Position numbers and translations under genes: made by a program. A stretch of DNA of 20,575 nucleotides from an uncultured archaeon (GTDB lineage Archaea > Asgardarchaeota > Thorarchaeia > Thorarchaeales > Thorarchaeaceae). Position 1 is the first letter of the stretch. The number at the start of each line of letters is the position of its first letter. A model generated the notes under the pieces. That model was given only the letters and a program-made list of their open reading frames with translations. It searched no databases and was not told the DNA's origin. Below, piece by piece: positions 20,094-20,575 of the stretch. Where the stretch lies: contig CAYWJO010000045.1 in NCBI GenBank assembly GCA_964458565.1, positions 1 to 20,575 on the forward strand. The letters run 5' to 3'.

Positions 20094-20575
20094 ATGTCAA
20101 GTAAAGATAAGGAGCACCTAAACCTAGTGGTAATCGGCCACGTCGACCACGGCAAAAGCACGATGACAGGCCGATTGCTCTATGAGACAGGTGCCGTAGA
20201 TGAACGTACGTTTCAAGCTCACAAGGCAGAGGCTGAAAAGCTGGGACGTCCATCCTGGATCGCGCAGAGATTTCCTCTCGCGAGGGGAAGCTTGGGCGTT
20301 CGCGCTAGACAGGCTCAAAGAGGAACGGGAAAGAGGCCTTACAATCGATATCGCCTTCTTCAAATTCTTGACTGACAAATACTACTACACAATTATCGAT
20401 GCCCCTGGTCATAAAGATTTCATTAGCGCTGCGTGATTTCCACTCAGCGGTGAAAAAAATATGATCACGGGAGCTTCGCAAGCTGATGTAGCATTACTTG
20501 TCGTGTCTGCAAAGAAAGGAGAGTTCGAGGCTGGTATTGGCCCCGGTGGTCAGACCAAGGAGCATGCATATCTTG
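20094..20575 (+). CDS. tuf: Elongation factor 1-alpha, 5' part, spliced: join(20094..20258,20290..20425,20456..>20575)
   Basis: [53 protein letters not shown]...GQTKEH. The frame is continuous only after removing two inserts. The gene runs off the end of the window. Confidence 0.93.
20259..20289 (+). other. EF-1alpha mRNA intron 1 (31 nt, BHB/BHL type)
   Basis: Inner hairpin TCGCG-C-AGAG-ATTTC-CTCT-CGCGA; central helix TCCT/GGGG; bulges GG|A and AA|G; 9-bp exon-exon helix 20244-20252/20293-20301. Removal corrects the +1 frameshift. Confidence 0.88.
20426..20455 (+). other. EF-1alpha mRNA intron 2 (30 nt, BHB type)
   Basis: Inner hairpin CGCTG-C-GTG-ATTTC-CAC-T-CAGCG; central helix TCAT/GTGA; bulges TA|G and AA|A. 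It contains an in-frame TGA, and removal restores DFIKNMITG. Confidence 0.9.

Follow-up and report, generated by a model that had tools for sequence, protein, structure and literature searches.

A 31-nucleotide insert in the EF-1alpha gene of a Thorarchaeota archaeon is very probably a tRNA-type mRNA intron

The window covers positions 1-20,575 of contig C45 in a Thorarchaeota genome of 3.7 Mb (93% complete, 5% contaminated). It carries rpoB, rpoA1/A2 and the genes of L30e, NusA, S12 and S7, and reaches at its end the gene of EF-1alpha, which among named proteins is closest to EF-1alpha of Candidatus Thorarchaeota. A single EF-1alpha locus was found in the 93%-complete genome, and it occupies the canonical position after rpoB-rpoA-rpS12-rpS7. 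About nine unrelated genes (by appearance coding for a DMT transporter, flavodoxin-like, TfoX-like and GyrI-like proteins, and others) lie between S7 and EF-1alpha at 14740-20090, and EF-1alpha has a TATA-like stretch of its own upstream. Two short inserts divide the coding sequence, and the features are arranged as follows:

20094-20258, plus strand: EF-1alpha exon 1, codons 1-55, P-loop included; match to the TIGR00483/PRK12317 profile at 2-53; collinear with intact relatives
20244-20252, plus strand: 5' arm of the outer exon-exon helix (h), pair probabilities of 0.98-1.0 with 20293-20301
20253-20256, plus strand: 4-bp central helix (H), exon strand; pairing requires a Ser codon TCY and is possible in 19 of 64 relatives
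20257-20259, plus strand: 5' bulge of the canonical 3 nt, with a cut predicted after 20258
20259-20289, plus strand: intron 1, 31 nt, frameshifting; identical in L062, L063, L172 and L173
20288-20292, plus strand: 3' bulge, enlarged to 5 nt, with a cut predicted after 20289
20290-20425, plus strand: EF-1alpha exon 2 of 136 nt, comprising codons 56-100 and one further base, with the G2 Thr73 and G3; profile match at 56-99
20293-20301, plus strand: 3' arm of the outer helix, with G20298 present in this lineage but not in its sister lineages
20426-20455, plus strand: intron 2, 30 nt, in frame with a TGA at 20434-20436; architecture and loop as in intron 1
20456-20575, plus strand: start of EF-1alpha exon 3; the gene runs past the window to C45:21611

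Read without removal of either insert, the frame stops at 20375 and yields 93 residues, just as the first-pass annotation had read it, and removal of intron 1 alone gives 103 residues, ended by the TGA within intron 2, while removal of both restores a normal EF-1alpha of ∼433 residues. The mean identity of this spliced protein to its relatives (89%) is close to the family mean (87%), and pN is ∼0.06 versus a pS of ∼0.7. EF-1alpha is thus intact, single-copy and under purifying selection, and it is not decaying; the cell therefore needs a way past both inserts. No full-length protein identical to the spliced EF-1alpha was found in the protein collection, and databases list the EF-1alpha of this organism as fragments of 93 and 331 residues, which affects both annotation and marker phylogenies. 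A scaffold gap lies within the gene (C45:20521-20730), where 100 N are flanked by a 55-nt duplicate. Since this repeat is absent from an independent contig, in which the gene is continuous and contains exactly two inserts, we regard the 55-nt repeat at the window end as a scaffolding artefact.

Insert 1 was likewise found in two JGI and two Logan contigs with ∼99% identity (five near-identical assemblies in total), all of the sampled words were recovered from four DNA runs, which are possibly the source runs, and one 151-nt record from another DNA run spans the insert with zero differences. Its presence in independent contigs and in a DNA record therefore argues against an assembly error, and the 31 nt at 20259-20289 are genuinely inserted between codons 55 and 56 of EF-1alpha. 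Neither a target duplication nor terminal repeats were detected at the insert. As had been noted from the sequence at the outset, the insert is located in phase 0 (between W55 and A56) and upstream of G2, the distance to the G2 threonine being 18 codons. When 20 possible 31-nt removals were tried, most preserved the frame and only that of 20259-20289 yielded RPSWAWAF, which is the sequence of 64 of the 67 family relatives lacking the insert; neighbouring removals yield SWTW, SWIW or SEAW, present in none of the 67. The junction derived from homology coincides to the base with that derived from the rule, used for cbf5 (PMC2738675), that the cut follows the second bulge base.

The transcript of this region can form a relaxed bulge-helix-bulge (BHB) motif of the kind originally described for it, with a 9-bp exon-exon helix, two G-U pairs in the central helix and an enlarged 3' bulge. 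The outer helix (20244-20252/20293-20301) comprises nine pairs, two of them G-U, and the central helix pairs 20253-20256 with 20284-20287. Intron 1 itself consists of a 9-bp stem (5+4 bp) with a bulged C, a 5-nt loop (20270-20274), the helix partner (20284-20287) and two bulge bases; the HBh' side is strict and the exon-side bulge has 5 nt. In the folding model, pair probabilities of the outer helix and the intron stem exceed 0.93. In the RNA folding that had been proposed as a check, the region folds more stably than 195 of 200 shuffled sequences, a modest effect (z −2.3, with 5 of 200 as stable or more so), but ViennaRNA favours a central helix slipped by one base (20285-20288; ∼82% versus ∼4% for the splice-competent register, which lies 1.8 kcal/mol higher). 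Counted by the same rule, the slipped register would give a 32-nt cut and a frameshift. Hence, the enzyme would have to pick the minor register, and this constitutes a weak point of the reading developed below.

The genome encodes two paralogues of the splicing endonuclease EndA. The first (187 residues; C1:27219-27782), for which the best match is Aeropyrum EndA (3p1z, E 1e-45), retains the catalytic Tyr, His and Lys as well as an N-terminal loop with K42 aligned to Aeropyrum K44, and the second (212 residues; C5:17152-17790) is devoid of the catalytic His region and looks structural and non-catalytic. The two probably constitute an alpha/beta pair assembling into an (alpha-beta)2 enzyme. This loop in EndA has been linked to broad specificity, relaxed motifs need such enzymes, and the type present in Asgard archaea is (alpha-beta)2 (PMC5829648). 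The relaxed-specificity endonuclease that the first-pass annotation had considered necessary thus appears to be at hand, in the form of an alpha subunit with the loop lysine and closest to Aeropyrum EndA, plus its non-catalytic-looking paralogue. RtcB is intact (E 5e-177), and 17 of the 24 recovered tRNA genes are longer than 95 nt, most of them with called introns.

It had further been suggested that the exon codons may be constrained by the RNA structure and that the local protein sequence RPSWAWAF reflects this constraint. The latter does not hold: RPSWAWAF is family-wide in Thorarchaeota genomes without insert (64 of 67), and we thus reject the intron as its cause. Synonymous sites do support the suggestion. 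All nine outer pairs are present here, compared with 6, 7, 8 and 9 pairs in 39, 18, 6 and 1 insert-free relatives, respectively (n = 64), a comparison (9/9 versus 1/64) that is inflated because the register was defined on this genome. When intron 1 is placed in the exons of each relative, only one of the 65 resulting structures is more stable than that of this genome. The closest relatives lacking intron 1 (84% DNA and 94% protein identity), which do contain intron 2, exhibit eight of the nine outer pairs, and in the proposed comparison of intron-plus with intron-minus relatives there are two differences within the motif, both synonymous, of which one completes the central helix and the other the outer helix; the sister lineage has the codons TCA and GCC there. 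Since eight of nine pairs are present in the sister lineage, the helix mostly predates intron 1, which appears to have been gained recently at a site already prepared for it. The site was either tuned after the gain or chosen because it was complete. At the site of intron 2, all six outer pairs are present in 4/4 carriers versus 1/64 non-carriers, where the carriers belong to four genera and may share descent.

Intron 1 was encountered in none of ∼68 other family genomes having the gene; it is known from one species only (the five near-identical assemblies), so that covariation is not measurable for it. Searching 86 genomes with a relaxed motif of intron 1 returned mostly chance matches. Split EF-1alpha genes among the matches listed for families f22 and f28 turned out to be paralogues or contig ends and do not correspond to the codon 55/56 site, and frameshifts in the EF-1alpha of genome G053 are deletions rather than introns. 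As a separate observation, tandem adjacent EF-1alpha-like paralogues occur in families f22 and f28 (L092/L098 in G250, L093/L097 in G180 and L108/L109 in G266).

Intron 2 is more widespread. It is present in three further genomes (G009, G022 and G079) and in several metagenome contigs, is nearly identical in G079, which belongs to another genus, and its stems retain pairing across lineages, that is, with compensatory changes. A third insert site exists in G094 (L041, codon 87; the insert contains a TAA). Introns 1 and 2, the G094 insert, an insert in an actin gene and several tRNA introns share one 1+9+5+9+4+2 layout, comprising one base, a 9-bp stem enclosing a 5-nt pyrimidine-rich loop, a 4-nt helix partner and two bases. 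Genome-wide, intron 1 is among the six best-scoring sites of this layout (pyrimidine-loop matches), and when hairpins with this loop core are ranked by stability, the top three are intron 2, a tRNA(CAU) intron on contig C11 and intron 1. The tRNA(CAU) intron (G000:C11:2128-2157, minus strand; L139, L166; 30 nt, position ∼43/44) is present in 7 of 25 family genomes, and its borders are confirmed by intron-free relatives. Intron 1 matches both intron 2 and the tRNA(CAU) intron at 21 of 31 positions (68%), and it shares 18-22 matches with the Thorarchaeota tRNA(CAU) 43/44 introns, which share 16-26 among themselves. Compared with structure-keeping shuffles, the similarity of intron 1 has a post hoc p of ∼0.02-0.04, and the sites of introns 1 and 2 both end in CCT-G before the cut. 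These similarities suggest a common ancestry of the mini-introns, the alternative being convergence on a shape favoured by EndA. Intron 1 does not qualify as a transposed tRNA intron of the Thermoproteales type, since its best identity of 68% is below the criterion for copying, at least 80% to another intron of the same genome.

Taken together, we consider it likely that intron 1 was gained recently in this lineage at a pre-existing outer helix, and that it is a member of the stereotyped 30-31-nt mini-intron family shared by Thorarchaeota tRNAs and mRNAs. The leading candidate for its source is copying from intron 2 or from the tRNA(CAU) intron, a proposal that we make tentatively and consider somewhat doubtful. 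Several additional inserts deserve mention. The actin gene (G000:C1:109606-109635, minus strand; L133) contains a 30-nt insert of the same layout that is confirmed in DNA, ahcY is split near codon 349 (C1, ∼187515-187545; L136) by a break also confirmed in DNA, and a perfect mini-intron layout at G000:C31:11043-11072 (minus strand; L164), located outside the long frames of that strand and devoid of an Rfam match, may interrupt an RNA. Further BHB-like inserts in Asgard EF-1alpha genes (L095 in G135; L104, L106 and L107 in G175, G183 and G211) are located after DAPGH or just after the P-loop HIDHG.

The site of intron 1 is also spanned by a tract of ∼100 nt (EF-1alpha codons ∼30-66; L064:1294-1404, minus strand; equivalent to 20181-20322 of the window) that is near-identical across genomes of other genera which are otherwise 75-80% alike. 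When identical cross-genus runs of at least 40 nt are considered, 106 of 122 start at codons 30-49, and they extend up to 110 nt. Identity to one version of the tract is 93-100% in 26 genomes of six genera and 85-86% in three more, followed by values of at most 81%. In trees from the remainder of the gene, the carriers do not form a clade (AU p 2e-51, with no fewer than five changes forced), and the tract ends vary. The present genome and its sisters lack the tract; its link to intron 1 is one of position only. Neither a copy in viral contigs nor a second copy in any genome was found, and our searches returned no intein-bearing form and no donor. The tract could be a gene-conversion tract, as found around homing introns, or it could reflect an overlapping function that was lost many times. 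It is tempting to speculate, even if we hold it to be unlikely, that a single mobile family of 30-31-nt mini-introns moves between Thorarchaeota tRNA and protein genes and chooses sites where its tail pairs with the exon, that intron 1 jumped recently out of intron 2 or the tRNA(CAU) intron, and that the shared tract marks where introns repeatedly invaded and were purged by gene conversion.

The evidence argues strongly that the EF-1alpha pre-mRNA carries a tRNA-type (BHB) intron which is removed by splicing, and, with intron 2 included, the message very probably must be spliced twice. In the folded transcript, the central helix and the bulges would be built from the six bases at the end of exon 1 together with the six at the end of the insert, with the 9-bp exon-exon helix holding the fold. 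The (alpha-beta)2 EndA would then capture the less favoured helix register and cut after 20258 and after 20289, RtcB would join the exons to yield W55-A56, and removal of intron 2 in the same way would give the normal EF-1alpha of ∼433 residues; cleavage, ligation and capture of the minor register are thus predicted steps. Three metatranscriptome runs with small shares (X7, X8 and X13) yielded matches only to conserved motifs of other organisms; their coverage did not extend to the junctions, and neither intron was bridged. De novo genome scans, in which a BHB plus a restored frame was sought and compared with shifted controls, remained at background (6 versus 5-8, and 4 versus 4-7), so that mRNA introns cannot be counted in this way.

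Could the protein be obtained otherwise? If an intron-free allele in some chromosome copies or cells supplied the protein, the insert would be removed or absent at the level of DNA in part of the population. The existence of a 95%-identical relative (P0002) without either insert and the location of the site within a tract apparently exchanged between genera fit such a scenario, but the insert is present in five of five near-identical assemblies, no joined form was seen in the mapped DNA run, target duplication and terminal repeats are lacking, and the synonymous exon changes help only an RNA fold, making it very unlikely. The slipped central helix of the preferred fold, and the fact that neighbouring 31-nt removals also preserve the frame, might point to splicing at another junction; however, the resulting SWTW, SWIW and SEAW motifs are foreign to the relatives, as described above. 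With 31 nt, the insert falls far short of the size of a self-splicing intron; group I and II introns, which have a ribozyme core of some hundreds of bases, were rejected, the Rfam matches in the window being two tRNAs only. Splicing at a different junction or by a different enzyme is highly improbable. A homing intron was likewise rejected, given the 31 nt and the lack of an intron-encoded endonuclease frame; among the best 120 longer matches, no long or intein-bearing Asgard EF-1alpha was found, which is weak evidence.

Translation of the unspliced message would require a +1 frameshift in insert 1 (UUU-C) and readthrough of the UGA in insert 2, resulting in two 10-residue insertions. Although the +1 frame is open across insert 1 and the genome contains a tRNA-Sec gene, ten residues would thereby be added to the effector region and to the switch II side of a most conserved GTPase, the length of which is invariant there among all intact relatives. 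Moreover, the different insert in G094 has a TAA, and both the bulge-exact borders and the exon helix would be left without explanation; we thus regard frameshifting and readthrough as scarcely credible. Translational bypass was rejected because take-off and landing codons differ. It is equally hard to believe that the locus is a pseudogene or an assembly artefact and that a working EF-1alpha resides in the unassembled part. Incompleteness and contamination of the genome, along with the scaffold gap in this very gene, leave room for this idea, but independent contigs close the gap with both inserts retained, there is no other lesion and the substitution pattern cited above reveals purifying selection, and intron 2 is retained at the same site in several genera.

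With removal by splicing as the preferred reading, the insert would work like a cbf5-type mRNA intron, and it exhibits every feature of that class that sequence can test: (i) the coding sequence is interrupted here yet continuous in 64 relatives, and the cuts restore the conserved protein uniquely among the 20 removals; (ii) a 4-bp helix and at least one 3-nt bulge can form at the borders, in a register that is minor (∼4%); and (iii) the host encodes a putative broad-specificity EndA and an RNA ligase. Compensatory changes across species are observed for intron 2. The cbf5 pre-mRNA intron of Crenarchaeota (Yokobori 2009, PMC2738675; also Yoshinari 2006, as cited there) is similarly a short coding-sequence intron with relaxed BHB borders, cut between the second and third bulge base, with a hetero-oligomeric EndA in the host and patchy gain and loss. 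In contrast, the present host is an Asgard archaeon, the gene encodes an essential and abundant translation factor, two introns surround a 136-nt exon, a young single-species intron lies beside an older shared one, and splicing is predicted. Haloferax HVO_1309 (reviewed in PMC10485636) likewise exemplifies EndA acting on an archaeal mRNA, but it concerns one gene of a haloarchaeon with an alpha2 enzyme, and spliced reads were reported for it, whereas EF-1alpha is known from DNA.

Asgard archaea and Thermoproteales have non-canonical tRNA introns (bioRxiv 10.64898/2026.10.13.758758; PMC11291895; Fujishima 2010, as cited in PMC4090602) that resemble the insert with respect to length (∼30 nt), hairpin, BHB borders and repeated recent gains, but these papers cover tRNA genes only; the 2026 preprint found no general copying route in Asgard tRNAs and does not mention mRNA or Thorarchaeota. 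The co-conversion tracts around homing introns such as that of plant cox1 (PMC3192709) are, like the EF-1alpha tract, short exon tracts beside an intron site that are near-identical across unrelated hosts. This is a resemblance only: here the tract carriers lack the intron, the intron carrier lacks the tract, and neither an endonuclease nor a donor was found.

In a 2023 review (PMC10485636), EndA-dependent mRNA splicing in Archaea is given for cbf5 and HVO_1309 only, and the literature we searched, which took in few subscription papers, contained no report of introns of this type in Asgard protein genes. If spliced, the sole gene for a most-needed Asgard protein would depend on EndA splicing twice, which would make mRNA splicing essential and tie translation capacity to tRNA-processing enzymes in the lineage nearest to eukaryotes. 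The finding does not bear directly on spliceosomal introns. The arrival of archaeal introns has been named the central open problem (bioRxiv 10.64898/2026.10.13.758758). The question becomes testable with a young intron for which sister lineages offer filled and empty sites, for which the same genome holds two candidate donors, and at whose site there is a conversion-like tract.

Finally, two tRNA genes with inserts are located elsewhere in the window (956-1092, minus strand, and 5162-5269); both were missed by ARAGORN with default settings and found by Rfam, and the one at 5162-5269 is mis-called with a stop anticodon. In addition, an exported-looking protein of 941 residues is encoded at 1136-3961 (minus strand), in which beta-propeller-like repeats precede numerous Asp-rich DxDxDG repeats and a membrane anchor at the C-terminus.
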